From: Candidatus Ratteibacteria bacterium
GTDB lineage: Bacteria; CAIJMQ01
NCBI GenBank assembly: GCA_028715665.1
Contig: JAQURI010000002.1
Location: 1 to 60,556, forward strand
DNA length: 60,556 nt
Direction: 5' to 3'
In this document: positions 6,569-58,009 of the stretch, piece after piece
Layout: every line of letters starts with the position of its first letter
Position numbering within the stretch: the first letter of the stretch is position 1
The notes under the pieces: generated by a model
What the model saw: the letters and a program-made list of their open reading frames with translations, nothing else
Databases searched by the model: none
Told to the model about the DNA's origin: nothing
Position numbers and translations under genes: made by a program

Positions 6569-6569
6569 C

Positions 6570-11336: not shown

Positions 11337-11348
11337 TATCTTGAAAAC

Positions 11349-12465: not shown

Positions 12466-12468
12466 GAT

Positions 12469-12783: not shown

Positions 12784-12808
12784 AAGTATTCGTATAGGAA
12801 GTAAATTA

Positions 12809-12934
12809 ATGAGAATCAAAATCAGATATGGATACCAGAGGCAACCAGAGCAGAACGACGCTGGTTTCGTCAAGATTTCAGCACCTAATTCGAAGCCTTT
12901 ATCTTCTTTAGCTCCTAATATTGCTTTCCCATGA
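12809..12934 (+). CDS. small leader ORF (41 aa)
   Basis: ATG about 25 nt after the promoter motif; its stop overlaps the ATG of the next gene (ATGA). Confidence 0.3.
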   Translation: MRIKIRYGYQRQPEQNDAGFVKISAPNSKPLSSLAPNIAFP

Positions 12935-13293
12935 AATCCATAGAATTGCGAACGAAAATACTTGAGATGTTGCCTGTGTTCCAGCAGGATGTTTGGCAGA
13001 GACTTGGGCTTGAGCACAGGCAGGTCTCTAAAGTCGTGCTAAAGCTGGAAAAAGAATTGTTCCTGACCCGGACAAAGGATAAATGTAGTTTCTATCTCAT
13101 TATCACTCCTGCCGGAAAGACCGAACTAAAGAAATTAGTCCCGGAAAAAGAACCGGTGGGTATATATGCGAAACCGAAGAGTCGGTTCGCCCCACTTGTA
13201 TCAAATGGGGTTTTCTCGCCATGTACCGGATGCTCTGTTATTGAATGCGACCCCTGTACTTGTGTTCCGCTTGGAAACTGGGTATTAATATGA
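12931..13293 (+). CDS. winged-helix transcriptional regulator (MarR/ArsR-like) with Cys-rich tail
   Basis: 120 aa; wHTH pattern ILEMLPVFQQDVWQRLGLEHRQVSKVVLKLEKELFLTR. Confidence 0.6.
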   Translation: MKSIELRTKILEMLPVFQQDVWQRLGLEHRQVSKVVLKLEKELFLTRTKDKCSFYLIITPAGKTELKKLVPEKEPVGIYAKPKSRFAPLVSNGVFSPCTGCSVIECDPCTCVPLGNWVLI

Positions 13294-13314
13294 GACAATC
13301 GGCGTTGATTAAAT

Positions 13315-13740
13315 TCAAACCCAGCCAGCGAATTGTTTTCCCCGCGTGAATGAGTTCTTGGAGCCCGGAGCCGGAACCATAATTGTTGTTGTTACTCGCC
13401 GATGTGGTAAAAGTTGTGATAATATCTTTTTGATTTTCGGGACTCTTGCTCTTCCTGATTCGTTGACCTGTCCGGTTGTTCCGTCTGGAATAAAGCTGAT
13501 AGAAACTGATAGTAAGGGTCTTCTAATATTAAGATGTGGATATAATAAAGTGCCAAGCCGCATTCTATATGATTTTGGGATTCTGTTGAAAATTGATTGC
13601 GCTTCCTGTTCAGTTTCGAAAACAATATCTACCTTGAATCCGAACTCATTTCCTTCCTGTACACGAATTGTATTCAGGGCATTTTCATATGATATCCTTT
13701 GTGCTGTCTGATTTTCAGTTTCCATCATAATTATAGTCAC
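13315..13740 (-). CDS. hypothetical protein
   Basis: 141-aa ORF, convergent with the plus-strand island. Confidence 0.5.
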   Translation of the reverse strand: MTIIMMETENQTAQRISYENALNTIRVQEGNEFGFKVDIVFETEQEAQSIFNRIPKSYRMRLGTLLYPHLNIRRPLLSVSISFIPDGTTGQVNESGRARVPKIKKILSQLLPHRRVTTTIMVPAPGSKNSFTRGKQFAGWV

Positions 13741-13835
13741 CTTATTTACTATTACCGATACAGGGATGTTCTTCCGGTAAAGCAGTTCTCCGTCCGGTGT
13801 GTAATTCCATAATCAATTAAGAGTTCACAGATGAA

Positions 13836-14219
13836 TCATTGATTTTTTTTTCTGAACCACCCAAAATTTAAACCTTCCGGTTCATATTCAATCATATCCC
13901 CGATTCTTATATGTATGTTCTTTTTTGCTATTACATGATATTCCCGCTCGTCTCCAAATAGCAATGTTCGATTGCCATCTCTTTGTATACGTTTTACATA
14001 CATTTTTCGCTTATTTAATGTTGTTTTTAGCCGTGCAATCGTTTGTTTAGCCAGAAAAACCGTTGTTTCTTTTGCCCGTTGTTCCACATCTTTTAAATCC
14101 CAATAGTGTATCCATATTTTATTTTTTGGGGACATACCGATAAATTCATTTACTGTACCTTTTTGACTCAAATCCCTATATATTTTTATATTATTTATTT
14201 GTTTAATATATTTTTTCAT
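13836..14219 (-). CDS. hypothetical protein
   Basis: 127-aa ORF overlapping the end of the upstream ORF. Confidence 0.55.
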   Translation of the reverse strand: MKKYIKQINNIKIYRDLSQKGTVNEFIGMSPKNKIWIHYWDLKDVEQRAKETTVFLAKQTIARLKTTLNKRKMYVKRIQRDGNRTLLFGDEREYHVIAKKNIHIRIGDMIEYEPEGLNFGWFRKKNQ

Positions 14220-14517
14220 ATTGTATCACATCGGGTTCTGTAAAGTTGTCGGTTGCTTTAGTCGTTTCGGTTAACATACCCGGTAAGGGAAAAACGATAA
14301 TAATAGCCTTTGGTGAGTTTTTCCACATCCGGGCGTACTTCTTAACGTAATCTGGTAAATCATCTATTGAGGTTATTGTTGATTTTACGTTAGCTTTATT
14401 AAAACAGGATTGGCAATACCGTTCTCCACCAAGTCTTTTGGAGTCTTTTTTGTAGACGGGTGCTTCGCAGCCCGCACAATTTATTGATTCCCAGTTTCTC
14501 CAGTTCCCTCGTGCCAT
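14203..14517 (-). CDS. zinc-ribbon protein
   Basis: 104 aa; CAGCEAP...YCQSC. Confidence 0.55.
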   Translation of the reverse strand: MARGNWRNWESINCAGCEAPVYKKDSKRLGGERYCQSCFNKANVKSTITSIDDLPDYVKKYARMWKNSPKAIIIVFPLPGMLTETTKATDNFTEPDVIQYEKIY

Positions 14518-14964
14518 TTATTTTGCCGCCTTATCTACTGCTTTTTTTAATATTGGAAGATGCAGGAAGTTCTTTACCCCTTCCGGTGCTTCTGCATCAT
14601 AATGACGTCCGTTATGATATACCCACAAGTGCCCGCCTAAATTTACATCCCTCTTTACTTTTGCCGGTAAATTTCCATATACTGATTTGAAATTTCTTTG
14701 TAAAATACCGTAATCTCCGAACATATCTGATGCTAGAATAAACGTTCTGTCGGTCTCTCCGCCGAGTTTTACTAACAGGACTTGCACAAACTCTTCACAC
14801 CCGCCGTTATTAATATCATATGGTGTTCTGTATCCATTACCGCTTGAAATGAATTCTTCTATAGTGCGATTAATAATAACAGCTACTTTACGAGCCTGCT
14901 TCATCTCATATTGATACCTATCCCGGCTTTTTTGCTTAAGTGTCCGCATATGTGATTTTACCAT
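14518..14964 (-). CDS. hypothetical protein (possible Cys-His-Asp hydrolase fold)
   Basis: 148 aa; NNGGCEEF ... GGHLWVYHNGRHYDAE spacing resembles papain-like or transglutaminase-like folds; weak. Confidence 0.5.
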   Translation of the reverse strand: MVKSHMRTLKQKSRDRYQYEMKQARKVAVIINRTIEEFISSGNGYRTPYDINNGGCEEFVQVLLVKLGGETDRTFILASDMFGDYGILQRNFKSVYGNLPAKVKRDVNLGGHLWVYHNGRHYDAEAPEGVKNFLHLPILKKAVDKAAK

Positions 14965-15806
14965 TTCCAGCTCCTTACCATAATGATTAATGACATGATG
15001 ACCAGAATCCCTTCAAAACCCGGTATCCCTTTTACCGGGGTTTCTGTTGCTGTTGGGGCTGGAACAAAGGTCAGGTCACTATCATCGGTACTTGTTTGTT
15101 GAACTGGCGGAACTGTTGTTATCACGGGTGTTCCTGTATGTACAGGTGTTGCCGTCACCGTTGGTGTTATTTTTATTTCCGCTGGTGTCGGGATTGGTGC
15201 CCCGGCATCATAAGGCTGGAACGTTATTGTTGGTTCCGGGGTTGTGATTACTGTTACCTCTTCAATCGGTTCTGATATTACCGTTGCTGTTCCTCCTGTA
15301 CCTGCACTGGGGGGAGGGGTTGGAGTTGGATTGATACCGGTTCCAACAATAACGGTAAAATCCTTGGCCGTTCCGTTCATTGTCTTACCGCCTTCTTTCA
15401 GGAAGATTACTGTTTCCTGTAGCCTGTATTTATACGTCCCCTGTATGTTCATTTTAAGAGTAATGCTGTCCGAGACGCTATGAATCAATCGCCATGAATT
15501 TCCCCGCGCTATTACTTTTCCGGTTTCAGTGTTGATTAGGTCATAGTTGTACTGGTAATAATCAAGGTCAGGCCAGTACCATTGTCTGCCGTTCCATGTG
15601 TTTACTACATAGGATATTGTTACCGTTCCACTCACGGGCGTCTTGTATTCTGTTACTACGCCCCCGGTGATAGTTCCGAGATTGAGTGACTTTGGATTAT
15701 TGATTATTACGAAAATCGCTATGACAAGTATGATAATTGCCAGCAAAGCTACAACTCTTGTCTGGTCTATCTGTTTTTCCTGCTTTTGCCGGGTTTTTCG
15801 TTTCAT
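14958..15806 (-). CDS. surface (glyco)protein with PGF-CTERM archaeosortase signal
   Basis: N-terminal TM, T/P-rich linker, C-terminus ..KGIPGFEGILVIMSLIIMVRSWKW (PGF + TM + basic tail). Confidence 0.75.
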   Translation of the reverse strand: MKRKTRQKQEKQIDQTRVVALLAIIILVIAIFVIINNPKSLNLGTITGGVVTEYKTPVSGTVTISYVVNTWNGRQWYWPDLDYYQYNYDLINTETGKVIARGNSWRLIHSVSDSITLKMNIQGTYKYRLQETVIFLKEGGKTMNGTAKDFTVIVGTGINPTPTPPPSAGTGGTATVISEPIEEVTVITTPEPTITFQPYDAGAPIPTPAEIKITPTVTATPVHTGTPVITTVPPVQQTSTDDSDLTFVPAPTATETPVKGIPGFEGILVIMSLIIMVRSWKW

Positions 15807-15913
15807 ACCATATTCCTGTTTTTAATCCATGCCTTGAATACTTTTGCTATGATTTACCTCTTTGAGAGTTTTCTTTGTAGAGATTATCCCCCAACCTTTA
15901 GCTGGTGTAATAA

Positions 15914-16117
15914 TTATTTCTGGTTCAATGGTATTAAGATTGCCTGAATGACCACTTTTCCTGTCTTCTTTGATGTTGCTATCCGGGCAATTGTTCCTGC
16001 TGGATATATACCCCTTGCTTTTGTATGTGAAATCGGCACAGTATAATATGTTCCCTCAACGAGTGTACTTGGCGGTCTGCGCCTGATATGTTTATATTTT
16101 GCGTCTTTGAATGGCAC
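15914..16117 (-). CDS. hypothetical basic protein
   Basis: 67-aa ORF in chain. Confidence 0.45.
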   Translation of the reverse strand: MPFKDAKYKHIRRRPPSTLVEGTYYTVPISHTKARGIYPAGTIARIATSKKTGKVVIQAILIPLNQK

Positions 16118-16120
16118 AAT

Positions 16121-16663
16121 TCACCTCTCAATTAATTTCAATAACTGGTCTGGTTTCAGAAATATTGCATTTGCTGTTAATGCAATGGCTGGTGAAATAA
16201 CATAAATAAAAATATATAATAAGTGCCCGTGAATTCCAAGACCATTCCATATCCATCCTAATACACTGTCTACTGCCGTGCCTGACAGGGCTTCTTGGTT
16301 CAGTATGAGAAAGTTCCCGTTCCATCCATAAGCAAACGGTGGTTGCCATAAATCCAAGAGTGCAAAAAGAGTGAAGGAAGTAATTCCGCCAGATATCATT
16401 CCCCTTATTGTTATTTCGCCTTCAAAGAAATAATCTAGCGGTATTCCCAATATTCCTGTAAGCATCACTACTGAACCTATATTATATATAATATATTGCG
16501 ATGGCGGATTAAGCTCTAAATACCATTTGTTCCCTGTCAGTATTGGAACTATAACTAACGACCAGACGACTCCGAACAAAAAAAAACCCACTATTATCAT
16601 CCATTCTAAATTTGATACTTCATATTTTCCCGATTTATGTTTTTTCTCCGGTCTTGCTTGCAT
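16121..16663 (-). CDS. polytopic membrane protein
   Basis: 180 aa with 4-5 hydrophobic helices. Confidence 0.6.
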   Translation of the reverse strand: MQARPEKKHKSGKYEVSNLEWMIIVGFFLFGVVWSLVIVPILTGNKWYLELNPPSQYIIYNIGSVVMLTGILGIPLDYFFEGEITIRGMISGGITSFTLFALLDLWQPPFAYGWNGNFLILNQEALSGTAVDSVLGWIWNGLGIHGHLLYIFIYVISPAIALTANAIFLKPDQLLKLIER

Positions 16664-16672
16664 GGTCTTCCT

Positions 16673-19600
16673 CTAATTTTCTTTTAATAAATCTTCAAAC
16701 GATAGCTGTCTGGACGGAGCTTCCTCTTTTGTGAAGTCTCCGATGTCGAGGTATACATCATAATGCCTTTCTTTTGGTGTTATTTCGTCGTCTTCCCGTG
16801 CTGTGATGTATCCTGAGGCTGATTTTATAATGCCTTTTCTTACTCCATCGTTGCCTTCCCGCCGGAATATTATCCTGTCTCCGATTTTGAATCCTGTTGG
16901 TTTGAACTTCCCGGATTCTATTGGGAAATCTCCTGCGTTATAATATTCTAGTATCTGGGCATATGTTTTGGCGAGATTGTTATCGTCTACGAATATTTCA
17001 CCTTTTAGGTATTTCGGTTTTACTTTATCGAGTTTTCTGATTATTTTTTCTAACGGAACGTAAATAATAGTAAAACCGTCTGCCCTCTGTATCTCTATTG
17101 ATGTTGACCCGAAATGACCTGTCTTCTTTATTGTTCCTTTCTTTTCCTCATTAAAATAAGAATCATTATATAAAACAAGGTCGCCTATTTTGTAACCGGT
17201 GAAAGTGTACGTTCCGGCGTTAATTGCTCTCTGGAGGTCTTCAATATCGTCGTATTTCTCTATCATCTCTTTATAGGTAATTAGTTCCCTGCTTATGGCC
17301 TGACGATAGATATCGCTCAGTGTCATCTTCCTGAGCGCAGGGACTTCCTGTTTCTCGACTTGGCCTTCCGTTCCTTTTGTCACTGTGATAACCGTCTTAT
17401 CGCCTTTCTGGACTCCTATACGGTCTCTGGCCTTCTTGTTCAGACCGTCCAAAGAATCGGATATCCTTGATGATGCCTTGAATTCGGCTATGACTGAATC
17501 GAATTTAGAATCTACTATAACGATAGCCTTATAGTGGTCTGCCGTATCGTCTTTTGTCTTGTATACAAGATGAGCCAGTTCATGGGAGAGTGTTTTTCTG
17601 ATTTTTGAGAATACTGCTATATCTCCCATGCCGATTGATTTTGATTCTAATGGAAAATCGTTGTATTCAAGGAATGGATAAAGGGCTTTTACACCTGTAT
17701 AATCCGTGGTTCCGTCTGCTGTGCCGAATCCGATTTTACGCTGGAGATAGATTGAATTCGTCGATGGTTCTGCATATGCCACGAGTCCGAATTCTTCATC
17801 TATTTTCTTATCAGTCTTCTGGATTCTTATTACCCTGCGTCCCGTAATATTTGCAATAACTGTTTTTACGTTGTTATAGCCTGCTGCATCAAGGAATGCC
17901 CGCATAATGAACTCTATCCTTCGCTCCTTTGCATTCTGTGCTCCGGGGCTGGATATCTTCGGGATTAAATGCATACTGCTTTCAAGTTCGCTGATATGAA
18001 CGAAGTTGTCAAACGCTTCAAAACCCATTTTCTGGAACTTGTTCTCTGCGATGGCTATATTGATTCTATAGTATCCCGCCATTTTCAGAGTATCGGCGTA
18101 CTGCTCTACGTCTTTGCGGTCGCACCAGAAGGTTTCTTTCTTCCATTTAGCGAATGTCATTCCTCCGCCGCTTCTTGCTTCGAGAAATTCATTTACTTTT
18201 TCTACTACTGTTTTTTGTTTCTTTTCCGTTGCTTCTTTCTCTTCTTTCAGGTCTTGCTGCTTCTCGTTGATTACGTCCTGTTTTTCCTGTACGCCCTGCT
18301 GCTCAGGAGTTGGTTTGGATGAACGTTCGGGGTCTGGCTGTTGTTCCGCTTTCTCCTGTTGGAGTTTTGCATGTTCCTGTTCTAACTGTTTTTGTTTTTC
18401 ATTATATGCTGCTGCATCTATTTTCGGGCTGTAATCCTTGGCTCTTGAGACAGCTTCATTTAATTTTGACGGGGATTTCAGGATTTCACTCATGTGGAGT
18501 TTGAAGTTCTCTTCCGAGAGGTCTTTATGTAAATCCCGTTCGACTTTTGTGACCAGTTCTACGATTTCCGGTTCGATAACCTCGAACCTGATATGGTATT
18601 TTATATCGTTGAATGTTGTGTATCTACTGATAAAATGCTGGACTTTTTCTATCTGTGAATCTGATAGTATATCTATCAATTCTATTGCATAGTCCCGTGC
18701 GAGTTCTTTAATGAATTTTTCAGTTCTTTCAATCCTGTCGTCGGTAATCCAGCCGTCCCTGCTTTTATTCGCCTGACCGTAAAAGGTATGCATAATGTTT
18801 ATATTACCCATCATCGCTGGAAGATTACCATACCTGTTATCTACGACTTCTTTTGATATGCTCCCGACCGGGGCACCATGGTCGAAGAGTTTTATATAAT
18901 CATATTCCCCGCCTGCTGTAAAGTACCCGATTATGCCTTCTTTTTCACCGTATTTCTTTTCGACCCTGACGTATCCGTATGGGGTTTCGTTGAAATTAAT
19001 TTTGTTGTTTGCAAGTTCGCCGTTAATTGTTATTGAACGAACTGGCATGGTTTTTGCAATTTCTTTTGCGATTTTAATCGCTTTTTCTTTATTATATGAT
19101 GGAAGCGGTTTCGTGAATTTTGCTATGAATTTTTGTTTTGCGCCCAATGTTTCATCCGATGAGTATTCTGCAACTTTGTAAGCCTTCATCATATCAAATT
19201 TTGGGTCTTTCTTATATTGTTCTTCAATCCAAGCAAAATCAAACTCGGCGTCAATGTCATTTGAAATTACTTCTACTTTTCCAAAAAGAAGGATAAATGA
19301 GATAAAACCTTCTCCGAACGGTTGTGTCTCTTCCCCTAAATGTTCATATCCTGATACTCCAAGATTAAAAACGGTATCAATATTGTTTTTATTGACGCCG
19401 CCTGCATTGTCTTCTATAGTATAAGAGTCATCATTGAATGTAATCGTTATATCTACAGGTACTTTTCTGTCACGGGATATTCGTTCACTGTTCTGAAGTG
19501 TTTCCCTAATAATTGTATATGCTCCTTGATATACATATCGACGCTCGATGAATTGTTCCACTGGATTTTTCGCAACGATGGGTTTCTCTTTTATTACTGG

Positions 19601-19765
19601 CGCAGTATTGTCTACCATGACAAGAGGCTGTCTGAGCACGTCTACGAGGTCTTTCTTAACGCTCACCTCATAATGTCTAGGAGCCTTTTCCTGAACTCCT
19701 TTCCGAGTTATTATTGTCTGTGGTTTTTCTTTCCACCCCGGATTCTTTTTTTCTGGGTTCGTCAT
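16673..19765 (-). CDS. 1030-aa multidomain protein: GHKL (Bergerat-fold) ATPase-like N-domain, K/E-rich coiled coil, HExxH zincin-like motif, duplicated SH3-like C-terminal modules
   Basis: ETLQNSE (N-box), IEDNAGGV (G1), QPFGEGFISF (G2, cf. Hsp90/MORC GxFGxGFxS); SHELAH; TGYKIGDLVLY / TGFKIGDRIIF repeats. Confidence 0.75.
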   Translation of the reverse strand: MTNPEKKNPGWKEKPQTIITRKGVQEKAPRHYEVSVKKDLVDVLRQPLVMVDNTAPVIKEKPIVAKNPVEQFIERRYVYQGAYTIIRETLQNSERISRDRKVPVDITITFNDDSYTIEDNAGGVNKNNIDTVFNLGVSGYEHLGEETQPFGEGFISFILLFGKVEVISNDIDAEFDFAWIEEQYKKDPKFDMMKAYKVAEYSSDETLGAKQKFIAKFTKPLPSYNKEKAIKIAKEIAKTMPVRSITINGELANNKINFNETPYGYVRVEKKYGEKEGIIGYFTAGGEYDYIKLFDHGAPVGSISKEVVDNRYGNLPAMMGNINIMHTFYGQANKSRDGWITDDRIERTEKFIKELARDYAIELIDILSDSQIEKVQHFISRYTTFNDIKYHIRFEVIEPEIVELVTKVERDLHKDLSEENFKLHMSEILKSPSKLNEAVSRAKDYSPKIDAAAYNEKQKQLEQEHAKLQQEKAEQQPDPERSSKPTPEQQGVQEKQDVINEKQQDLKEEKEATEKKQKTVVEKVNEFLEARSGGGMTFAKWKKETFWCDRKDVEQYADTLKMAGYYRINIAIAENKFQKMGFEAFDNFVHISELESSMHLIPKISSPGAQNAKERRIEFIMRAFLDAAGYNNVKTVIANITGRRVIRIQKTDKKIDEEFGLVAYAEPSTNSIYLQRKIGFGTADGTTDYTGVKALYPFLEYNDFPLESKSIGMGDIAVFSKIRKTLSHELAHLVYKTKDDTADHYKAIVIVDSKFDSVIAEFKASSRISDSLDGLNKKARDRIGVQKGDKTVITVTKGTEGQVEKQEVPALRKMTLSDIYRQAISRELITYKEMIEKYDDIEDLQRAINAGTYTFTGYKIGDLVLYNDSYFNEEKKGTIKKTGHFGSTSIEIQRADGFTIIYVPLEKIIRKLDKVKPKYLKGEIFVDDNNLAKTYAQILEYYNAGDFPIESGKFKPTGFKIGDRIIFRREGNDGVRKGIIKSASGYITAREDDEITPKERHYDVYLDIGDFTKEEAPSRQLSFEDLLKEN

Positions 19766-25160: not shown

Positions 25161-26387
25161 TTACGTCCTCTTCTTTCCTTTGCTCTTTCCTTTGCTCTTA
25201 CCTTCCTTTATGTGAAGTTTTGTGTAACCTATGTAAACGATGGCTATTGCGATGATGGCTATGAGAATATTCGTGCTCGTCAGTATTGATTCTTTTTCAT
25301 AGGTTATTACTGCGCCCCCGGATGGTATTTCAGTTTCAACGATTGCTGAACCTGTTTCCCCGGATGCAGTTGATGTTGGGGCTGGCTCATTTGGCGTACC
25401 CATCGTTGGAACCGGCGTTGGGGTTTGAGTCGGTGTAATTGCGCCAATTGCAGGGGTCGGTGATGCTGATATAAATACTGCGCTTACTGGTGACGCTGTA
25501 TTGATATCTACACCTTTTGCTACTGAAGTGTAGCCCGCTAATGTAAATGTCAATATCTTCGCTGAACTTGAATCGAGGCTTAGACTGAATGGGGTTGTTC
25601 CGAGGGTCTGGCCTGATGAAGTTACTGTGGCTCCTGATGGACTTGATATCACCTGAATTGTTTTTGTAGACACCGGGATTGGTGTTGGAGTGGCAGCTAC
25701 GGTCGGTTGTGGTACCGGATATTTACAATTTCCTCCTGTTAATGCGCCCCTTCCAGCTCCTGACTGGTATGAATTATACCATATTATATTTAACATGTAT
25801 GTCGATGTTACTCCCCATCCGGGGTTTGCCAGCCGAACCCATGTTCCGTCTTTTTTCATCTGGTATTCTACTACCATGAAAGGAATTGTCTGGCCAGCAG
25901 TGTATCCACGGTATGGGATTTCTATACTATATGGTGTTGAAATCGTTGATGATGACTGGAACTGATTGGAGTCATATACTTTATTTGTCGGGAAGTTTGC
26001 TAATAATAAATCTACACTTCCGCCAAGGTCGTTTTCCCATACTTCTATCCTGTGGGTGTCCGTAAAACTATTTGCACTGTCCTGAATCGTTTTAACTCTT
26101 ACATTTGTTTTGGCATTATAACATACACTGGTATCAATGTTGGTGCCGCTTGGAATTTCTGTTATCGCTCCAAGACTTAATGTTTTTCCTGATATGGAAA
26201 CCTCTGCTGTTGTTCCGTCACTGTACGTCACTTTATAGATTTGATTTCCGATTCCCAGCACGCTTGTAAAGATTCCGTACTGGTTATCTATGAGTTCTCT
26301 CTTTACAACAGTAACTTGCCCTGCTGCCGATGCGAATGGGATTAATGCAATAAGCACTAATACCAGCCAGAATTTCAGTTTACTCAT
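25161..26387 (-). CDS. PEGA-domain surface protein, type I membrane anchored
   Basis: signal peptide; SSPSGATVTSSGQTLGTTPF..AGYTSV PEGA-like segment; C-terminal TM + KSKGKSKGKKRT tail; N-domain paralogous to 23222-24463. Confidence 0.7.
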   Translation of the reverse strand: MSKLKFWLVLVLIALIPFASAAGQVTVVKRELIDNQYGIFTSVLGIGNQIYKVTYSDGTTAEVSISGKTLSLGAITEIPSGTNIDTSVCYNAKTNVRVKTIQDSANSFTDTHRIEVWENDLGGSVDLLLANFPTNKVYDSNQFQSSSTISTPYSIEIPYRGYTAGQTIPFMVVEYQMKKDGTWVRLANPGWGVTSTYMLNIIWYNSYQSGAGRGALTGGNCKYPVPQPTVAATPTPIPVSTKTIQVISSPSGATVTSSGQTLGTTPFSLSLDSSSAKILTFTLAGYTSVAKGVDINTASPVSAVFISASPTPAIGAITPTQTPTPVPTMGTPNEPAPTSTASGETGSAIVETEIPSGGAVITYEKESILTSTNILIAIIAIAIVYIGYTKLHIKEGKSKGKSKGKKRT

Positions 26388-28167
26388 TTTGCTTCCTCCA
26401 TATCAGTAATAACCCTAACAGGATTATCAGACCTGCAAGAACCTTTGCGGAGTTGGTTTCATACCAGTTCAATCTGGTCGCCTCAATCAATTCTCCTGAT
26501 GGGACACCACCGCTATTAGTGCCTTTACCTGTCGTGTTTGCAGTTGTTGTACACGAATATTTTCCACTATTATAATCCAATGCTTTACCAGTACAATCAA
26601 GGGTAATGGTTTCTCCATACCCGTCCTGATTACAGGTATACACTATTTTACTATCAGTTCTCGTTGTCCCCGGTGTACATGCTTTCGGGACGGTCATTGT
26701 GATTGTAAAGGTTTTAGTAGCGTAATTGCTCGGTTTGTTGTAATCATATACTTTCATCGTAGCTGTTTCTGTCTTTGATATTGCTGTTGCTCCGTGTCCG
26801 ATATAGACCGCTATTGTGCCGGTTGCACCCGGAGCCAATGTTAGTTTTGCCGATTCAACGTTGCTTATTGGCGAGAATGTGCTGGTCGCCGGGAATGTTG
26901 CTGAGAACGTGCCTGTGCCTGACCCGGTGTTTTTTACAGTTACTATTGCTACACCTTTATTATCTCCGCTTGAGAATGATGGTACATCTATTGATACGAT
27001 TTCAGGTTTTCCGACTGGTATTAGAACACCCAGTTTGTCCGCTTTTACAATTAATTGTAATACGGGACTGGCTATTCTCCGGTCTGTTGATTCGATTACA
27101 GTTCCGTCATTAAGACCACCAGTAATTGATTTTACTATTTCGCCGCCGCCGGTAGATGAAACGTCTGTGATTACCGAGTCCTGAGATTCCAGAATATCTT
27201 CGTTTGCATTGTATACATTGATTGCGGATAACAGGTCATCTCGTGGTTTTGCACAATATGGGTCATTAGTATCGATGTTCTTATAACAGGTATCTATTTT
27301 CGACTGGACGACTGCTAACTGGGCTACTACATCTTCCCTGTTTGAAAGGTATGGCGTTAGATACTTTTTATCTGCAACTTTCCATTTCGGTGTTGTGTAG
27401 CTGTATGTCGGTATAAAATTATTCTGGTTCGGCCACGCCTGACCTGTGAGTAAATTCCCAGCCCATGATGCATGAACGATTTGTTCACCTGCACTGTTCT
27501 TGAAATCAAGCGACCCCGCCGATTCAGCGGAACCGATTGTTTGTGTTATTGGAATGCTGTTTATGCTTACAGTCATCTGGCCTTTCCATTGATATTCCGG
27601 GTTTCCGAACGAACCGTAAACTCCTACAGGCACTTCATCAACAAGAATAACCATATCATTACCTGTTCCCGAATATCCTGCTATATCTTTCACGACAATA
27701 CAGGATGCGTGGGAACCAAGACATTGTGCACCATTCCAAAAGTCTTTTCGATATACTTTTGTAAAAGTATACCGGGTAATCTGGGTTCCGTCGTTCCTGA
27801 TTGGATATTTCAGGGTTTCAGAGATTCCGCCCATGCTGATTTCTAATGGATACTTGACGTCAAGGTTCGGCAACCATCTCTGAAAGTCCGATTCTCCGAT
27901 TGTTCCCACTATCGACTGGCCACCACCGTTTACCGTGACTGAGATTAAGAAATTGGCATTAGCGAGGTCTTGGTCGTTTGAGATTATCGCTGGTGATGTG
28001 ATACTGTTCACTGTAAACCCCGATGACCCGGTGATTGCACCGAGTTTCAAGTTCCTGATATCTACAATACCTGTGCTGACAAGTAGTGCAGCAATAACTA
28101 GGACTAATAACGCTGCGATAATAACTGGCGTCGCAATGTTTTCGCTCTTGTTTACTACTCTCTTCAT
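26380..28167 (-). CDS. large membrane-anchored surface protein
   Basis: 595 aa; N-terminal TM then LKLGAITG.. module shared with 28601-30553 and 14958-15806; C-terminal TM. Confidence 0.7.
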   Translation of the reverse strand: MKRVVNKSENIATPVIIAALLVLVIAALLVSTGIVDIRNLKLGAITGSSGFTVNSITSPAIISNDQDLANANFLISVTVNGGGQSIVGTIGESDFQRWLPNLDVKYPLEISMGGISETLKYPIRNDGTQITRYTFTKVYRKDFWNGAQCLGSHASCIVVKDIAGYSGTGNDMVILVDEVPVGVYGSFGNPEYQWKGQMTVSINSIPITQTIGSAESAGSLDFKNSAGEQIVHASWAGNLLTGQAWPNQNNFIPTYSYTTPKWKVADKKYLTPYLSNREDVVAQLAVVQSKIDTCYKNIDTNDPYCAKPRDDLLSAINVYNANEDILESQDSVITDVSSTGGGEIVKSITGGLNDGTVIESTDRRIASPVLQLIVKADKLGVLIPVGKPEIVSIDVPSFSSGDNKGVAIVTVKNTGSGTGTFSATFPATSTFSPISNVESAKLTLAPGATGTIAVYIGHGATAISKTETATMKVYDYNKPSNYATKTFTITMTVPKACTPGTTRTDSKIVYTCNQDGYGETITLDCTGKALDYNSGKYSCTTTANTTGKGTNSGGVPSGELIEATRLNWYETNSAKVLAGLIILLGLLLIWRKQNE

Positions 28168-28600: not shown

Positions 28601-30553
28601 TTATCTCCGTTTCAAGTATATGTAGTATCCGGCACCTACTATCCCGACAACCAGTAGAGCTATCAGGGCGTTTATTACCCATGCGTATCCACTTCCAATC
28701 AGGTCTTCAAGGAGTCCCGTCTGTTTCTGTAGTTTTTCGATTTCAGACGGCAATGTGTTCTTTGAAATGTTGATATTTACTGGCATTGATGTTTTTGATA
28801 ACGGGTTGTTCTTTGATTGCATTACTATTTTTGCAGAATAGTTTCCTGCTGCTCCGCTGAATGGGATGGTTGCTGTGCTTTCACCATTCGCCGGCAAGGT
28901 AAATGTTTGGACTCCACTTGACAGCGATGGCTTTGACTGTAGTGAGATATCAAACGAGTCCGGTACTTTTCCTATATTCTTGAATTTCACTATTTCATAT
29001 GAGGTTACCCCCTCTGTGGACGTCCCTCCATCTACGGATAGGATTTTCGGAATTCCGGCGTCTATTTGCATTGCAATTGTTTTTGCTTTTATTAGTAGCT
29101 GGAACTCAGGATATGTCACCGGATAGGTCGGCCTGCACACGACGGATAAAGATGGTACATCCAGAACACAATCTCTTGGTGTTGTTGTTTCCGTGGACAT
29201 GAGACCAAGCATGTTATTCAGGGTATTTTCTTTATCCGTAATCGTTTCCCGGCCTACTCCGGGGTCTCTGGCAACCGGTGCTGCCGGGGGGAGTGGGGCT
29301 GGCGGGACTGGTGGCGGTAACAGTGCCATGTTTATTGCTACTTTATTGATTGTTGGCATTGTGTTTATTTCCTGTACGAAATCCCTAAACCCTGTTGTTT
29401 TAGCTGTTATTGTATGCCTGCCTACAGTTACGTCCGGGATTGTTACCGGCGTAATCCCTGCTGCCCTGTTATCAATGTATATCGTCGCTCCGACCGGAGT
29501 TGAATTTATAACGAGAGAGCCTGCTAAGTTTGCCCAGCTATACACGAAATAGTTATTATCGAAGTTTACCAGTTCATCCAGTGTCGTTTTGTAATTACTG
29601 TATCTGGGCTTTGTGACGAATTTCAACTGGTCTTTTACCGGTGTTCCTTCCACGCCCTGAACAACGGCGAAATCAACGCCGGGCTGTGGCGGGAATACTG
29701 ATTCTATCCTTCCACCAATTGCTTTTATTCTTGCAAAGTCTCCAAGGTTACTGACCCTGTTCTGTTCGTCCATCGTAGTCTGGGCGAGAATTTCATCGTC
29801 TCTTGATAATGTGAATTGAACCTGATATTTATTGAATGGCATTGTGTCAATTAAATACCCACGGTAGTACGGCACACCGCCAAAATGTGTTACCCACCAG
29901 TTCCCGCTCTTATCTGCGCCGAACGGAATGTTTGATGCTTCCGGCATAACGTATGCCCATCTTCCGATATCGACCATGAGATTAACGTCCCCTCCAGATG
30001 GGAAATTACCGAGATGATTCATCTTTGGTGCCTGTCCGTTCGGGTCTACATACGTGCCCAGAGCGGATGCACGGGTTGTGAGCTTTGTGGCTTTTGAGTA
30101 TGGTACTGGTTGTGAGAGGTCTGCTGTTGCCGTGCTTTCGTATACTTTGTACATCACAACATCGTTATACAGTTTATACTGTAGTGACATATCCTGAAGC
30201 TCTACTGAAAGTGTAAGGTTTCCAAGCAACGTGTCCGGGATACCCATCCTGTTCAGGTCGTCCTGAGTTACGGTCGCTTTGATGCACTCCCCGCCCTTAT
30301 CTGCACGTACAGTTACCAAGTAGATTTTTTCATTGTTAAGTGTGGGTTCGTTGCTGATTGTCTTGATATCACTGACTCCGATAACTGTGAAATCACAGGT
30401 AGGTGCAGGGGTTATCGAGCCAAGTTTCAGGGTTGTTCCGAACAGGCCGAAATACGCCCCGGCCAGCCCAGATATTATTAGAACTGCGGCTATGATTGGT
30501 ATATATCCTGAATATTTATTGCCTTTTGATTTTCTCGATGTCATTTTAATCAC
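28601..30553 (-). CDS. large PEGA-domain surface protein
   Basis: 650 aa; clear PEGA motif INSTPVGATIYIDNRAAGITPVTIPDVTVGRHTITAKTTGF; proline-rich linker; N- and C-terminal TM. Confidence 0.8.
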   Translation of the reverse strand: MIKMTSRKSKGNKYSGYIPIIAAVLIISGLAGAYFGLFGTTLKLGSITPAPTCDFTVIGVSDIKTISNEPTLNNEKIYLVTVRADKGGECIKATVTQDDLNRMGIPDTLLGNLTLSVELQDMSLQYKLYNDVVMYKVYESTATADLSQPVPYSKATKLTTRASALGTYVDPNGQAPKMNHLGNFPSGGDVNLMVDIGRWAYVMPEASNIPFGADKSGNWWVTHFGGVPYYRGYLIDTMPFNKYQVQFTLSRDDEILAQTTMDEQNRVSNLGDFARIKAIGGRIESVFPPQPGVDFAVVQGVEGTPVKDQLKFVTKPRYSNYKTTLDELVNFDNNYFVYSWANLAGSLVINSTPVGATIYIDNRAAGITPVTIPDVTVGRHTITAKTTGFRDFVQEINTMPTINKVAINMALLPPPVPPAPLPPAAPVARDPGVGRETITDKENTLNNMLGLMSTETTTPRDCVLDVPSLSVVCRPTYPVTYPEFQLLIKAKTIAMQIDAGIPKILSVDGGTSTEGVTSYEIVKFKNIGKVPDSFDISLQSKPSLSSGVQTFTLPANGESTATIPFSGAAGNYSAKIVMQSKNNPLSKTSMPVNINISKNTLPSEIEKLQKQTGLLEDLIGSGYAWVINALIALLVVGIVGAGYYIYLKRR

Positions 30554-50203: not shown

Positions 50204-50470
50204 ATGACAACAGTTAGACATAACCTGAAGGCTGACGATGAAGCTCTTGCTTTGATTAATAAAGTTCGTGCTGCCCTTAGACAGCGTGGTGTAGGCAATC
50301 CAGATACGTCTGATGTTATTAGGGAGTTATATTCAGAAAGGAATCTCAGTCAAAAACTGTGCAGCCGGTTAATTAATTTTGCCGGTGAATATGGTGATAA
50401 CGAGGGGGCTGTCGATGTCCTTGACAGGCTCCTGCATGAACTGGCTGACCTGCGAGCTAAAACTCACTAG
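50204..50470 (+). CDS. hypothetical protein (possible ribbon-helix-helix)
   Basis: 88-aa ORF; N-terminal TVRHNLKADDEALALINKVRAAL resembles a strand-helix RHH start; convergent with the RNA ligase gene. Confidence 0.45.
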   Translation: MTTVRHNLKADDEALALINKVRAALRQRGVGNPDTSDVIRELYSERNLSQKLCSRLINFAGEYGDNEGAVDVLDRLLHELADLRAKTH

Positions 50471-51542
50471 ACTTGAATAGTTCAAAGTCCGGTTTAAGTG
50501 CCTGCCAGATTAATTGTGTTGCTTTTTTGCCATCTCCGTCAATGAGTGCAAATACCGCCCCGCTGATAGGCTTGGCGTGGTTCAGGATGTATTCTGCCTG
50601 CTCCCTCCGGGTCGTGAGACTGCTGGCCTCCTGTGCAACTCCCTGTGCCTTTGTCATAAGTGCATCTTTTGCTGTCGTCAGGTCTTTCTCGCATGACCGT
50701 ATCGAATCGTACATTTCATCCGGAGCAATAGCAATGATGAGGTCAAGTGATTGCCCCGCCTTTAGTGATTCCCAGATATCCCTTGCTGATAAGCCAGTCA
50801 GGATTTTATGAATTCTCCGGTAATCGTCTGATTTGATTTTGACTCGCAGGCCAGTATCGTATTTCATTACCAACCCTTCCCGCTCGTCTCCTTTGAAATC
50901 TTTCAACCAATTGATGGCATCATCGATTTCTGTGAACGGAAATTCCTCTGCATACGAAAAACCGAGTTGTTGGGCTTCCCTTATATAATCCAATTCGTCT
51001 TTTCCGTTGTTATTTAGAACTGCCAGTAGAATAAGTTCCGACCGTTCCCCGTAATCAATAACGATTTTACTTCCCGGATACACTATTTCAAAACAATATG
51101 TGTATCCTTCCCAGAAGTCGTCCATCGAGAATCCTTTTTTCCGAATCCAGTCTGTCGCCCACACTGCATATTCAGATTTGAAAGCTCCTCTCGTAGAGAT
51201 TGCCGATAGCTTTTTCTCCGGATACAGAATTCCCAAAACCCCGTCATATTTTTCTGAGAAGGTCGGGTATCCCAACCTTTTGCGGTTCGGAAGATTTTCT
51301 ATTTTCGTTTCCGGGACTTCATTGAGATTAAAGAATTTCTTAAATGGACGAGCCACTATTTCTCCATCTGAATCCAGTATCAGACCCCGACACATCTTTG
51401 TATACTCGTCCCAGAGAGAATCGTACTGCGTCCGTTTCGTATAATTGTATATCGTCAGGTCGAGGTCTGGATGTCTGGTAGCTTTTATTCGGCCTGATGC
51501 TATACGGGCATTGAGTTCGTTTATATTTATTGTGTTTTTCAT
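50457..51542 (-). CDS. ATP-dependent RNA ligase, T4 Rnl1-like
   Basis: 361 aa; MCRGLILD..GEIVARPFKKFFNLNE, nucleotidyl-transfer lysine motif EKYDG, FEIVYP, EGLVMKY..KIKSDDY all parallel T4 Rnl1. Confidence 0.85.
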   Translation of the reverse strand: MKNTININELNARIASGRIKATRHPDLDLTIYNYTKRTQYDSLWDEYTKMCRGLILDSDGEIVARPFKKFFNLNEVPETKIENLPNRKRLGYPTFSEKYDGVLGILYPEKKLSAISTRGAFKSEYAVWATDWIRKKGFSMDDFWEGYTYCFEIVYPGSKIVIDYGERSELILLAVLNNNGKDELDYIREAQQLGFSYAEEFPFTEIDDAINWLKDFKGDEREGLVMKYDTGLRVKIKSDDYRRIHKILTGLSARDIWESLKAGQSLDLIIAIAPDEMYDSIRSCEKDLTTAKDALMTKAQGVAQEASSLTTRREQAEYILNHAKPISGAVFALIDGDGKKATQLIWQALKPDFELFKSSEF

Positions 51543-51726
51543 ATTTTATTTTTCAAGTGTTTTTTAACTGCCTCAAAAATCATTTTGTGTCCTTCTCTAT
51601 TCGGATGAAGACCGTCTGCCAATAAATATTCATGGTCTTGTTCCTTTTCGAACTGCTTGAAGATATCGATGTAATGAATGTTTAATCTACTGTCACCCCA
51701 TACTTTTTCTTTACAACGTGATTTAA
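51539..51726 (-). pseudogene. SGNH/GDSL hydrolase, C-terminal fragment (displaced by cassette insertion)
   Basis: frame reads (L)KSRCKEKVWGDSRLN...LLADGLHPNREGHKMIFEAVKKHLKNKI*, i.e. block V DxxH; no start codon; its stop overlaps the RNA ligase ATG. Confidence 0.8.
51719..51726. repeat. target-site duplication tgatttaa (left)
   Basis: identical 8-mer at 52375-52382, immediately outside both terminal repeats. Confidence 0.8.
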
Positions 51727-51746
51727 GGTTCTGTTAAGTTGTCGGG
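51727..51746. repeat. left terminal inverted repeat ggttctgttaagttgtcggg
   Basis: the reverse complement of 52355-52374 differs at one position. Confidence 0.85.
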
Positions 51747-51759
51747 TGCTGGATGGGGC

Positions 51760-51777
51760 TGTTAACCATCGGGAGTT
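51760..51777. repeat. left subterminal inverted repeat tgttaaccatcgggagtt
   Basis: 16/18 match to the reverse complement of 52324-52341. Confidence 0.65.
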
Positions 51778-51817
51778 TTTATTACTAATTAATTAAAATA
51801 AGATATTGAGGTATAAA

Positions 51818-52339
51818 ATGAATAACATGGTATTACATCCAGATATTATATTAAAAAGAAGTTCAGTAGCGGGATTCGGTCTATTTGCTTCAAAAGATAT
51901 TCCAATCGGAACAGTAATATGGAAATACGGAAACGTCAGGGTATATACAAAAGAGCAATACGATAAATTCAGTGAGCGATATAAAGCAATTCTAAGGCAT
52001 TTCTGCTATGAGGGTAGTAACGAGACATTAGTTTATTGTACCGACAATAGTAAATATTTTAATCATTCCTGCGACCCAAATACAATGTCCATAGATACTG
52101 AAAAAGACATCACAATCAAAGATGTTTTCGCAGGAGAAGAACTCACTTACGATTATGGGTATTGGTATCTCAAATGGAATGATGCTTTTATGTGCCACTG
52201 TGGCTCAGATGATTGCAGGCGATACATCAAAAGAGAACCACAGGAATCACCAACTATAAGAAATTTAGAAACAATGGTAAAGAAGGCATGGGAAAACTCA
52301 ACGAACGTAATCCAACCCCTATTAACTCCCGACAGTTAA
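51818..52339 (+). CDS. SET-domain protein lysine methyltransferase
   Basis: GFGLFA, YFNHSCDPN, GEELTYDYGY and post-SET CHCGSDDCRRYI motifs; ATG at 51818 preceded by GAGGT (the track TTG start is 51806). Confidence 0.9.
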   Translation: MNNMVLHPDIILKRSSVAGFGLFASKDIPIGTVIWKYGNVRVYTKEQYDKFSERYKAILRHFCYEGSNETLVYCTDNSKYFNHSCDPNTMSIDTEKDITIKDVFAGEELTYDYGYWYLKWNDAFMCHCGSDDCRRYIKREPQESPTIRNLETMVKKAWENSTNVIQPLLTPDS

Positions 52340-52341
52340 CA
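52324..52341. repeat. right subterminal inverted repeat
   Basis: aactcccgacagttaaca; encodes the last residues and stop of the SET ORF. Confidence 0.65.
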
Positions 52342-52354
52342 AGGGTTCTTAACT

Positions 52355-52374
52355 CCCTACAACTTAACAGAACC
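52355..52374. repeat. right terminal inverted repeat ccctacaacttaacagaacc
   Basis: supplies the artificial ..GSVKL* end of the truncated hydrolase ORF. Confidence 0.85.
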
Positions 52375-52869
52375 TGATTTAATAAGTTTATTATAATACA
52401 ATATATACTTGTTTAAATACGACCTGTTATCGTCCCACGGTACTGGTGTCGTTCTGGATTCATCTACCATTCCTGCACCAACGAAGAGCATATAGTTAGA
52501 ATACCTTTTGGCGGCGTTAATTAAATAGCATAACGTAGTATCAAAGTCATACGGACTGGTAACGAATCGGTTCTCTCTCTTGAGGATACAACAGTCATTC
52601 ACTCCAATATTGAAAATGAAAAATATGTTTTCACCTTCATCCTTTTCGACCAATTTGGCATCAGTCTCGTCCTTAAACCGGTTCAATACATCAGTTATGG
52701 TATTACCTGATATTCCAAGATTATATATCAATGGAAAATCAGAGTTCCAGAATTCGGGCTTTGATACTGTTTTTTTATCAAAATATTTTCTCAGCCGCTG
52801 AACCCACCCGCCTTCTATATCCCACGCTCCGTATGTGATACTGTCACCAAAAACAAGTATTTGTGTCAC
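52357..52869 (-). pseudogene. SGNH/GDSL hydrolase, N-terminal fragment (truncated by cassette)
   Basis: MTQILVFGDSITYGAWD (block I GDS), NLGISGNT (block II), FNIGVNDC (block III); the ORF ends inside the right TIR. Confidence 0.8.
52375..52382. repeat. target-site duplication tgatttaa (right)
   Basis: identical to 51719-51726. Confidence 0.8.
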
Positions 52870-53681: not shown

Positions 53682-53969
53682 TTACTTCTTCGGGGTCTCG
53701 ATGCCGACCTTTTTCACGAACGGTTTCTTTATTTTCTCTGGCATCCATGCAGGTCTTTTTTCCGGTGCGGCAACGATTGCATGATAACCTGTGAATACGT
53801 GTATTTTCTTCGTGCCACGTTCCCTTAACCTGATTGTTTCTGGAGCTTCTTTCGTTCCGTTACCGGCATTAGCTGCTTTCAGTGCCGCTTGTCTTGGGGC
53901 TGTGCCTGTGAATGTTCCGCCTTCAATTCCATCTTTACCTACAATAACGTAGTTTTTCGTTTCACTCAT
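53682..53969 (-). CDS. chromatin protein MC1 homologue
   Basis: from the ATG at 53969: MSETKNYVIVGKDG..GTFTGTAPRQAALKAANAGNGTKEAPETIRLRERGTKKIHVFTGY..APEKRPAWMPEKIKKPFVKK, colinear with Methanosarcina MC1; the track start at 54059 is too far upstream. Confidence 0.9.
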   Translation of the reverse strand: MSETKNYVIVGKDGIEGGTFTGTAPRQAALKAANAGNGTKEAPETIRLRERGTKKIHVFTGYHAIVAAPEKRPAWMPEKIKKPFVKKVGIETPKK

Positions 53970-54153
53970 ATATTCTATTCCTCCGATTTTATTTTCGGTA
54001 TAAGGAACGGCCATTGGCCTTTCCCATGTTATGTTTATATTTAAAGTATATATACGCATCGGTTGAGTTTGACTTTACTAACCCGTGCTTGTTCTTACCA
54101 TAGAAACTTATATATATTGCCTATCAAAATCTATTGTACGAGGTGTCAATTAA

Positions 54154-55188
54154 ATGCCAGACAATAAAGAAATAAACCGCCTTATTGGTGTAAAAATCGG
54201 CAGCACGTATTCTGTTTCTGCTGCTCGTGAAGAACATGAAACTCCTGTAACGAATGTGATTAAATCGTGTGTTTCTCCAGTTACCGACCCCGATACTACT
54301 GTTTTGAATGATACTTATATCGGTGTTGAGCGACCTGATTCGGTATTCCCGCTCGATAAGGGTATTATCGAAAATGATGCAAATATCCTGTTAACGATAG
54401 CGATTATTAATAAACTTAATATCCCTCCCGGAGCCTATGTCGTTGCAGCCATTCCTGCTCTTGAACTAACCGATGGACGGGCGCGGTTGAAGAGGGCTCT
54501 TCTGGAATCACTCAAACCTGCGAAGATGGTATTGTCCCCGGAAGTATATTGTGGGGCGGTTACTGCTCTTGGATATTCTGAGATTAACGGGAAGCAAAGA
54601 CTGAAGGCACTCCATTCTGATTTCCTTGCCCTTAACCTTGGGTCAACCACAACTGAAGTCCTTATCGCTCTTCATGGGGAACGTAAATATCTCAAAGCGT
54701 TCACGAAGGTTTGCGGGAATATGGTCGATTCTGAACTATTCGATACATTGCATAACACGTTCGGAAAAGTGCTAATCACCATGCCCCAGATAAGGGATAT
54801 AAAAGAACAGTTCAATATGATAAACCAAAAAGACGTCATAGTGAATGTCTTGACCCATAGCGACGGTGTGAAAAAAGTTCCCGTTCAGAAAGTCGTTATG
54901 AGTGTACTTGATAATTACGTGTTCAATGTATCCGATTTACTGGTGAATATCCTGAAAAACAATCTTACTCCTGAGACTATTGCCCAAGTCCTTGATACCC
55001 CTATCGTCCTGACCGGTGGAATGAACAATATTCCCGGATTGGCTGAACGGATTGAAAAGAAAATGCGTGAACTACTGCATTACGAGAAACTGACCGTCTT
55101 GAAACAGGTCGATGGACATATCGCCCCGGCAATTGGTGCACTTACTCTGTCCACTGAAATTAACTGGGAGAAGATTCCGGTTGCTTAA
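54154..55188 (+). CDS. actin/MreB/ParM-superfamily ATPase
   Basis: 344 aa; phosphate-1-like IGVKIGSTYS, phosphate-2 ALNLGSTTTEV, adenosine motif IVLTGGMNNIPGL. Confidence 0.7.
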   Translation: MPDNKEINRLIGVKIGSTYSVSAAREEHETPVTNVIKSCVSPVTDPDTTVLNDTYIGVERPDSVFPLDKGIIENDANILLTIAIINKLNIPPGAYVVAAIPALELTDGRARLKRALLESLKPAKMVLSPEVYCGAVTALGYSEINGKQRLKALHSDFLALNLGSTTTEVLIALHGERKYLKAFTKVCGNMVDSELFDTLHNTFGKVLITMPQIRDIKEQFNMINQKDVIVNVLTHSDGVKKVPVQKVVMSVLDNYVFNVSDLLVNILKNNLTPETIAQVLDTPIVLTGGMNNIPGLAERIEKKMRELLHYEKLTVLKQVDGHIAPAIGALTLSTEINWEKIPVA

Positions 55189-55795: not shown

Positions 55796-56245
55796 ATGCC
55801 TGACGATAATGAAGATTCTATAGTCTGGATATTTATGTTTTTTTGCCCTTACTGTAAAAGCAAAGATACTATCTGGTATGGAAAAAGGTATAATAAAACC
55901 GAAATTAAATCGAAACGAAAATGCAAATCCTGTAGACGGGTTTATACAAATCAACCGTCCAGAGCTAAAGGTAAAAAGAATACATTGGAATCAATAAATC
56001 TCGCTATCAATATCGCAAAAGACCATAGCCTGAGAGAGACCGAAAGTATTCTGAAGGAGAAATATGGAATCCAAATAACCCATGCTTCGATATCTAATTG
56101 GAAAAAACAGCATGAGGCATTGCTTAAAAAAATTGAGATTGTAGAGAAAGATGACCCGGATTGGATATATAAACCGATATTGAAAACAAATACACGACCT
56201 GATTATGATGGAAATAAAATAGAAGCTGAGTGGATGGACGTATGA
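55796..56245 (+). CDS. zinc-ribbon + HTH protein (IS1/IS1595 transposase N-terminal-like, no DDE domain)
   Basis: FCPYCKSKDTIWYGKRYNK...KRKCKSCRRVYT, then an HTH-like SLRETESILKEKYGIQITHASISNW. Confidence 0.55.
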   Translation: MPDDNEDSIVWIFMFFCPYCKSKDTIWYGKRYNKTEIKSKRKCKSCRRVYTNQPSRAKGKKNTLESINLAINIAKDHSLRETESILKEKYGIQITHASISNWKKQHEALLKKIEIVEKDDPDWIYKPILKTNTRPDYDGNKIEAEWMDV

Positions 56246-57989: not shown

Positions 57990-58009
57990 GGTTCTGTTAA
58001 GTTGACGGG
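57990..58009. repeat. solo copy of the SET-cassette terminal repeat
   Basis: ggttctgttaagttgacggg, 19/20 to the left TIR at 51727; no inverted partner found nearby. Confidence 0.6.

Follow-up and report, generated by a model that had tools for sequence, protein, structure and literature searches.

A probable IS6-like mobile insertion cassette with a SET-domain methyltransferase as its only cargo interrupts an SGNH hydrolase gene in an archaeal mobile element

A 60,556-nt stretch of DNA, contig JAQURI010000002.1 of assembly GCA_028715665.1 (hereafter the window, meaning the whole stretch), contains a gene for an SGNH/GDSL hydrolase that is split by a 648-bp element (51727-52374) with inverted repeats at both ends. 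A single open reading frame (ORF) lies inside the element, on the strand opposite to the split gene, and encodes a SET-domain methyltransferase; the ORF scan, Pfam and tblastn agree on this content and on the lack of a transposase gene. The initial annotation of the window had described the element as a transposase-less cassette of the mobile insertion cassette (MIC) type with SET as its sole gene, and the anatomy supports this description: terminal repeats matching at 19 of 20 positions, subterminal repeats matching at 16 of 18 and a perfect 8-bp target-site duplication (TSD) are all present (Table 1), with the small correction that the SET start codon is at 51818.

Table 1. Positions of the cassette, its target and related features in the window
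Feature	Position	Strand	Detail
TSD, left copy, TGATTTAA	51719-51726		Identical to 52375-52382
Left terminal inverted repeat, GGTTCTGTTAAGTTGTCGGG	51727-51746	+	19/20 against right end
Left subterminal repeat, TGTTAACCATCGGGAGTT	51760-51777	+	Second copy of the TGTTAA-N-TCGGG core, offset 33
AT-rich leader upstream of SET	51782-51817	+	GAGGT ribosome-binding site at 51808-51812
SET-domain methyltransferase ORF, 173 aa, only cargo	51818-52339	+	PF00856, E=8e-16
Right subterminal repeat	52324-52341	-	16/18 against 51760-51777
Right terminal inverted repeat (reverse complement GGTTCTGTTAAGTTGTAGGG)	52355-52374	-	19/20 against left end
TSD, right copy, TGATTTAA	52375-52382		Identical to 51719-51726
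SGNH/GDSL hydrolase, 5' part (blocks I-III)	52375-52869	-	
SGNH/GDSL hydrolase, 3' part (block V, DGLHPN, catalytic Asp/His)	51539-51726	-	Severed from start codon
T4-type RNA ligase gene	50457-51542	-	PF09511
MC1 chromatin-protein gene	53682-54059	-	PF05854, E=9e-31; candidate SET substrate
Solo terminal repeat, 18/20	14234-14253	+	Synteny breakpoint with L161
Solo terminal repeat, 19/20, intergenic	57990-58009	+	Flanked by genes for a VTT-domain membrane protein and a TrmB/MarR-like regulator

The two ends of the element are built alike. Each combines the terminal 20-mer with a subterminal repeat that lies 28 nt inward of it, the core-to-core spacing at the right end being equal to that at the left (28 nt), and the resulting modules comprise about 55 bp on the left and about 51 bp on the right. 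The parts derived from an insertion sequence (IS) extend over approximately 51727-51781 and 52324-52374 and enclose a cargo segment of approximately 51782-52323; as is characteristic of a MIC, both ends are thus IS-derived and the interior gene is unrelated to transposition. When one flanking base is included, the terminal pair is 21 nt long. The left terminal repeat is a putative outer transposase-binding site, and each cassette end presumably holds two such sites. In the window, the terminal 20-mer occurs four times, against zero copies expected from window shuffles, and we calculate a chance of ~5e-5 for a 19/20 inverted pair within 1.3 kb and of ~1.5e-5 for the adjoining 8/8 duplication.

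The interrupted gene can be restored precisely. The called ORF of its 5' part (52357-52869) runs for five codons (GSVKL) and a stop into the terminal repeat. Excision of 51727-52382 in silico fuses ...YYNKLIKS to RCKEKVWGDS...DGLHPNREGH... in frame (junction ...AACGTGATTTAATAAGTT...) and yields a 224-aa ORF on the minus strand, the TGA of which overlaps the RNA-ligase ATG as ATGA (51539-51542); both the join and the overlap had been noted in the initial annotation, and the alignment across the junction that it had proposed as a check was obtained. The restored ORF covers positions 1-208 of 208 of the Pfam model Lipase_GDSL (E=5e-21) versus 1-152 for the truncated ORF, and aligns without gaps over 224/224 residues (67% identity) to a homologue, P0087; other SGNH homologues, 211-224 aa long and for the most part 211-219, likewise span the junction in alignment, with 96-100% query coverage. 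Residues G8, D9, S10, N50, G89, N91, D92, D200 and H203 are invariant in this alignment, and the motifs GDS, G, GxND and DGxHPN are unchanged throughout. Blocks I (GDS), II (G), III (GxND) and V (DxxH) come together in one polypeptide only after excision.

P0087 is encoded on the related contig L159, directly upstream of an RNA ligase 76-86% identical to that of the window. The tblastx match between L159 and the window stops exactly at 52378 and resumes at 51727, and because it breaks at the edges of the cassette, L159 represents the syntenic empty site in a related lineage. This uninterrupted SGNH-RNA ligase pair upholds the earlier proposal of a clean insertion into the SGNH gene of an archaeal mobile element. 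The SGNH enzyme of the window should be inactive, because block V with its catalytic Asp/His is severed from the remainder. The RNA ligase may additionally suffer from polarity, since its gene is translationally coupled to the SGNH gene and the inserted SET gene runs against the direction of this operon. The same SET protein is encoded by three public contigs, in which the arrangement was assembled identically from three sequencing runs; their 100% identity to the window means that they give no population information.

To find further copies of the ends, exact GGTTCTGTWAAGTTGWMGGK was searched against one-genome-per-species contigs, in which loci from the genome collection are fixed 8-kb pieces. 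The string was found at 39 genome places, 36 of them archaeal (Methanoperedens, Bathyarchaeia, Nitrososphaeria, Aenigmatarchaeota and Methanothrix), and in 109 metagenome stretches, giving ~150 loci in total; IMG/VR viral contigs gave no match, and a literature search with the repeat string returned unrelated primer sequences only. Each match was then treated as one end of an element, and the sequence downstream was searched for an inverted partner, under relaxed matching, behind which the 8 bases preceding the first end recur. Approximately 20 elements, 395-5240 bp long, were delimited in this way; their 8-bp duplications are perfect and differ in sequence without relation to one another. Several further repeat pairs have no duplications. 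Of 125 unique family ends, 41 have a subterminal TGTWAA-N3-5-YSGG motif at offset 32-33, where chance would give 0.1; by this measure the subterminal repeat is a family trait.

The larger elements with the same ends encode a transposase of 347-409 aa, in which SWIM, zinc-ribbon and helix-turn-helix (HTH) domains are combined with a DDE_Tnp_IS240 core (PF13610, 59-61 bits, cut-off 27). Thirty repeat-bearing loci contain this transposase, and the cassette is linked through its ends to a transposon family. Homologues of the transposase number 5,983 at E<=1e-20 (120 inspected) and span Methanoperedens, Bathyarchaeia, Nitrososphaeria, Nanoarchaeia and Aenigmatarchaeota; those named by NCBI are called only 'DDE-type integrase/transposase/recombinase'. 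The nearest named homologues belong to Candidatus Methanoperedens (82% identity), which suggests Methanoperedens as the host of the helper.

All delimited autonomous elements hold genes in addition to the transposase. These passengers include a C5 DNA methylase with an NgoFVII-like restriction enzyme (L101, 4075 bp), the M and S subunits of a type I restriction-modification system (L140, 5240 bp; assigned from the sequences, without a domain scan), a PAPS-reductase-like enzyme (L102, 2277 bp), proteasome-like proteins (L070 and L142; the matches are weak and do not exceed the curated cut-off), and small zinc-finger and unknown proteins (L108 and L147). A near-identical L108 element is found with at least three different flanks in the metagenomes of one study; close autonomous relatives are therefore active. 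Transposase-less members carry an Abi_alpha gene (L032, 1287 bp), an unknown 148-aa gene (L093, 1328 bp) or, in several Bathyarchaeia elements of ~400 bp, a conserved ~70-aa membrane ORF. Members from Bathyarchaeia and metagenomes with the size of miniature inverted-repeat transposable elements (MITEs; L029, L043, L128, L131, L149 and L031/L051, ~400-840 bp, L149 1204 bp), flanked by 8-bp duplications, all encode such a ~70-aa hydrophobic protein (MAISLL.DL..RAI.II.LTD...), for which there is no Pfam match.

The autonomous elements also allow the right end of the cassette to be interpreted. Their transposase gene reads toward the right inverted repeat (IRR) and ends within the subterminal repeat, with its stop codon 38-52 nt short of the tip. 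The right module of the cassette matches the IRR of L101 at 49/54 positions and those of L108 and L147 at 46/54, versus 38-40/54 for the left ends of these elements, and the SET gene is oriented toward this IRR-type end. Homology to other SET loci begins only at ~51814 and ends at ...QPLL; the last codons, TPDS and the stop (52325-52339), lie within the right subterminal repeat and are the same as the last codons of the L147 transposase (KTPDS and the stop). Because the right end is IRR-type and the SET tail equals the transposase tail, the SET gene stands where the transposase gene would be, and in its frame. Such a configuration fits an origin by deletion within a passenger-carrying parent of the order IRL-SET-transposase-IRR (IRL, left inverted repeat), or by an equivalent replacement. 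The left module has its best match (49/54) in an end from a Methanoperedens metagenome-assembled genome (L011).

We propose that a transposase with the SWIM, zinc-ribbon, HTH and DDE_Tnp_IS240 architecture, supplied by an autonomous relative in the host, would act in trans on the cassette ends and would insert the cassette into the SGNH gene of the virus- or plasmid-like element, creating the 8-bp duplication. If the route resembles that of IS26, a replicative cointegrate would join the donor replicon to the element, and recombination between the two cassette copies would then leave a simple insertion. The carrier would thereby gain a lysine methyltransferase, the target of which, by analogy with the enzymes Go1-SET and vSET considered below, might be a chromatin protein. 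Presence and absence at orthologous sites are seen for two cassettes, the SET cassette and the SGNH cassette of a sister element (L161). Movement by another route, namely cut-and-paste transposition or recombination of solo ends instead of cointegration, or use of the cassette as an integration handle that fuses a circle with the chromosome in the manner of the 'translocatable units' of IS26, is in our estimation unlikely. The archaeal clade is far from IS26, bipartite ends and SWIM are not IS26 features, and a cut-and-paste route is possible for so distant a clade; additionally, a rearrangement breakpoint coincides with the solo end at 14234, and duplications are missing from several repeat pairs, as IS26-like secondary events would give. 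As to an integration handle, however, no IS-flanked integrated copy was seen, and the window has no terminal overlap.

The family to which the cassette belongs is indicated by its ends and by the cognate transposase together. The terminal-repeat consensus of IS6/IS26 is GGTTCTGTTGCAAA, with G1, G2 and G7 nearly invariant, and transposition generates 8-bp duplications; archaeal IS6 members have longer repeats, with a consensus reaching at least 18 bp (PMC6807381, PMC7986276). The cassette repeat, GGTTCTGTTAAGTTG..., agrees with this consensus over positions 1-9 (GGTTCTGTT) and diverges from position 10. Among NCBIfam models, IS6 (NF033587) is by a wide margin the best for the transposase, aligning over 1-201 of 202 positions at 122.8-123.5 bits, compared with 50-56 bits for IS1 (cut-off 100) and 20 bits for IS1595 (cut-off 75). 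The ends, the 8-bp TSD and the transposase profile thus point to a non-autonomous archaeal IS6-like member and away from the IS1595/IS1 type. We consider it very probable that the cassette derives, as a 'mobile insertion cassette' without autonomy, from a clade of IS6-like transposons in archaea.

The initial annotation had favored an IS1595/IS1-type element and had pointed to orphan zinc-ribbon ORFs of that type in the window, for example at 55796-56245, which on this reading would be remnants of the cognate transposase. The 8-bp duplication is compatible with that assignment, IS1 is the second-best model, and the N-terminus of the transposase weakly resembles the zinc ribbon of IS1/IS1595, at 24-26 bits against a cut-off of 28; nevertheless, the full-length IS6 match, the DDE_Tnp_IS240 core and a repeat that opens with the IS6/IS26 consensus make this attribution most improbable. 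ORF 55796-56245 itself gives only sub-threshold zinc-ribbon matches and has no similarity to the transposase, and it was rejected as a transposase gene. The notion that the repeats recur as a regulatory motif or protein-binding site around an ancestrally resident SET gene, the apparent insertion being coincidental, a concern already raised in the initial annotation, could draw on the two further copies of the 20-mer in the window, both on the + strand beside gene ends, and on the operon-like arrays without repeats in which most SET homologues reside, but it is hardly credible given the perfect 8-bp TSD, the exact in-frame restoration of a conserved enzyme, the related contig with the uninterrupted gene pair, and family data in which the same repeats are element ends, bounding ~20 elements with unrelated TSDs and a DDE transposase in many archaeal phyla.

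Several observations nonetheless weigh against assigning the SET cassette to an IS6-like clade as its non-autonomous derivative. The best NF033587 scores fall just below the curated cut-off of 125, and Harmer and Hall have argued that archaeal 'IS6' may be a separate family (PMC6807381, PMC7986276). The autonomous relatives measure 2.2-5.2 kb versus 0.7-0.9 kb for classical IS6; their size and their passengers argue for a distinct clade and against classical IS6. A tblastn search of the window with the cognate transposase gave E>1 and no remnant. The left end matches the autonomous elements at 40-43/54 positions and is not clearly IRL-like, and neither a second copy of the SET cassette nor an empty site of the same lineage was found, so that the insertion is known from a single lineage.

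The cargo is a well-supported member of the SET family (58.8 bits against PF00856, cut-off 22.4). Its sequence contains GxG, NHSC and ELTYDY motifs and a post-SET CxCx4C; the best solved relatives are the SET and post-SET domains of KMT2/SETD2, and the protein aligns with the SET and post-SET domains of KMT2D, including NHSC, ELTYDY and CHCG..C. Because these motifs are present and the protein resembles the KMT2/SETD2 catalytic domains, the enzyme is probably active; the AT-rich leader upstream of the gene is a putative promoter. The gene for the chromatin protein MC1 lies 1.3 kb from the cassette. A Salactin/MreB-like actin gene (54154-55188, +) lies divergent from the MC1 gene, likewise 1.3 kb from the cassette. 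The one characterized archaeal SET enzyme, Go1-SET of Methanosarcina mazei, methylates MC1-alpha (PMC3980110). By analogy, the cassette enzyme might methylate MC1 or another chromatin protein, of the host or of the element itself, a suggestion that we regard as tentative and rather doubtful.

The SET gene has relatives outside this family of ends. It is the only sequence common to the window and the large virus-like contigs L001, L004 and L007, in which the homologues are 65-75% identical to the SET of the window; the gene itself thus looks transferred. The scan for SET relatives in viral contigs returned none. The SET homologues in L001-L007 and L174-L178 have no such repeats on either side. 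On contig L179 (GCA_040960625.1, JBFOMW010004890.1), a SET homologue with 67% identity is preceded by a family repeat (2919-2936), 82 nt upstream of the start, that matches other family members at 18/18 positions; this locus has no recognizable right end or duplication and may be an older, decayed SET cassette. Since the other homologues lack repeats, the link between SET and the cassette is, apart from L179, lineage-specific.

A sister of the window's mobile element is represented by the contigs L161, L162 and L163, which are syntenic with window positions 6500-17000 at 58-80% amino acid identity. At 9899-10722 of L161, and also in L162 and L163, lies an 824-bp single-gene SGNH cassette. Each of its ends has a terminal and a subterminal repeat, and the duplication that encloses it, CTTAATGC, is perfect. 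Its SGNH protein, P0089, is 53% identical to the restored enzyme of the window. The orthologous intergenic site in the window (~8127-8170) is unoccupied; each of the sister elements thus has a cassette that the other lacks.

Two solo copies of the terminal repeat are present in the window. At the copy at 14234-14253, ORF 14203-14517 of the window corresponds to no more than the first ~85 aa of an L161 protein of 316 aa, which has a weak Pfam match to ART-PolyVal; the homology ends 13 nt from the repeat, and ~4.4 kb of L161 genes are absent beyond it. A candidate subterminal repeat inside this end was dropped, as the stretch is coding sequence homologous to L161. For the copy at 57990-58009, no partner end was found. 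Both solo ends are best read as traces of earlier events in which this transposon family took part. Two 12-mer matches, at 2093 and 60430, were set aside as being at chance level (~0.8 expected, an estimate).

Elsewhere in the window, neither a terminal overlap as a sign of circularity nor tRNA genes were found. A 595-aa protein encoded at 26380-28167 (-) has a sub-threshold match to HAP2-GCS1 (E=3e-5, 23 bits, cut-off 27), and PEGA-domain proteins encoded at 25161-26387 and 28601-30553 flank it; together these genes may form an archaeal fusexin-like module. At 16673-19765 (-), a 1030-aa ORF has a weak match to HATPase_c_3, and its C-terminal end is conserved in L161 (80% amino acid identity over the overlap).

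A survey published in 2019 reported that passenger-carrying DNA transposons were undetected in archaea (PMC6563490), and our targeted literature search found no later description of them. The ~150 related loci point to an abundant clade that routinely carries cargo and sheds single-gene cassettes, the cargo of the family including SET, an SGNH esterase, Abi, restriction-modification and a PAPS-reductase-like enzyme. The different cassettes of the two sister elements indicate that such cassettes actively remodel archaeal virus and plasmid genomes, and, as related cassettes hold other single genes, the whole looks like a route by which genes move between viruses or plasmids and chromosomes. We speculate that the IS6-like cassettes and their passenger-laden relatives constitute a general archaeal gene shuttle between chromosomes and viruses or plasmids, defined by a pair of ~50-bp ends; this is a possibility worth entertaining, although we lean against it. 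If it holds true, the shuttle would play in archaea a part like that of integron cassettes or phage morons, and delivery of SET would be a means of rewriting the chromatin of the host or of the element. A mobile SET gene beside MC1 offers a concrete archaeal case in which chromatin modification would travel as transferable cargo.

Among known systems, IS6/IS26 shares with the cassette the 8-bp TSD and a repeat that begins with GG, has G at position 7 and is identical over its first 9 nt, and shares with the cognate transposase the DDE_Tnp_IS240 core behind an HTH. For the IS6 family, only two MITEs (MITEBth2 and MITEHarch3) and a single passenger-carrying member (ISDsp3) are listed in the literature (PMC7986276, PMC6807381). 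Unlike classical IS6, the present clade is of larger size (see above), its 347-409-aa transposase includes SWIM and a zinc ribbon, its ends are bipartite, and passengers are the rule and not a single known case; the cassette of the window differs further in that it lacks any transposase.

In its build, the cassette resembles bacterial mobile insertion cassettes. One of these is MIC231 of Bacillus cereus, derived from the IS231/IS4 family. The qnrD 'mic' of Proteeae is a second example (PMC3913671). Both resemble the cassette of the window in having IS-derived repeats, one gene unrelated to transposition, no transposase, a TSD and presumed mobilization in trans; the window cassette, by contrast, belongs to another IS family, is archaeal, has a virus- or plasmid-like target and a methyltransferase as cargo, and has this cargo fused to the terminal codons of the transposase.

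In its cargo, the cassette recalls SET enzymes that act on chromatin. The vSET protein of Paramecium bursaria chlorella virus is a virus-borne SET enzyme that modifies host chromatin. Like Go1-SET and vSET, the SET protein of the window is small and stands alone, and the window also encodes an MC1 homologue; unlike them, it has a post-SET CxCx4C resembling that of KMT2/SETD2, and its delivery is by a transposon cassette.

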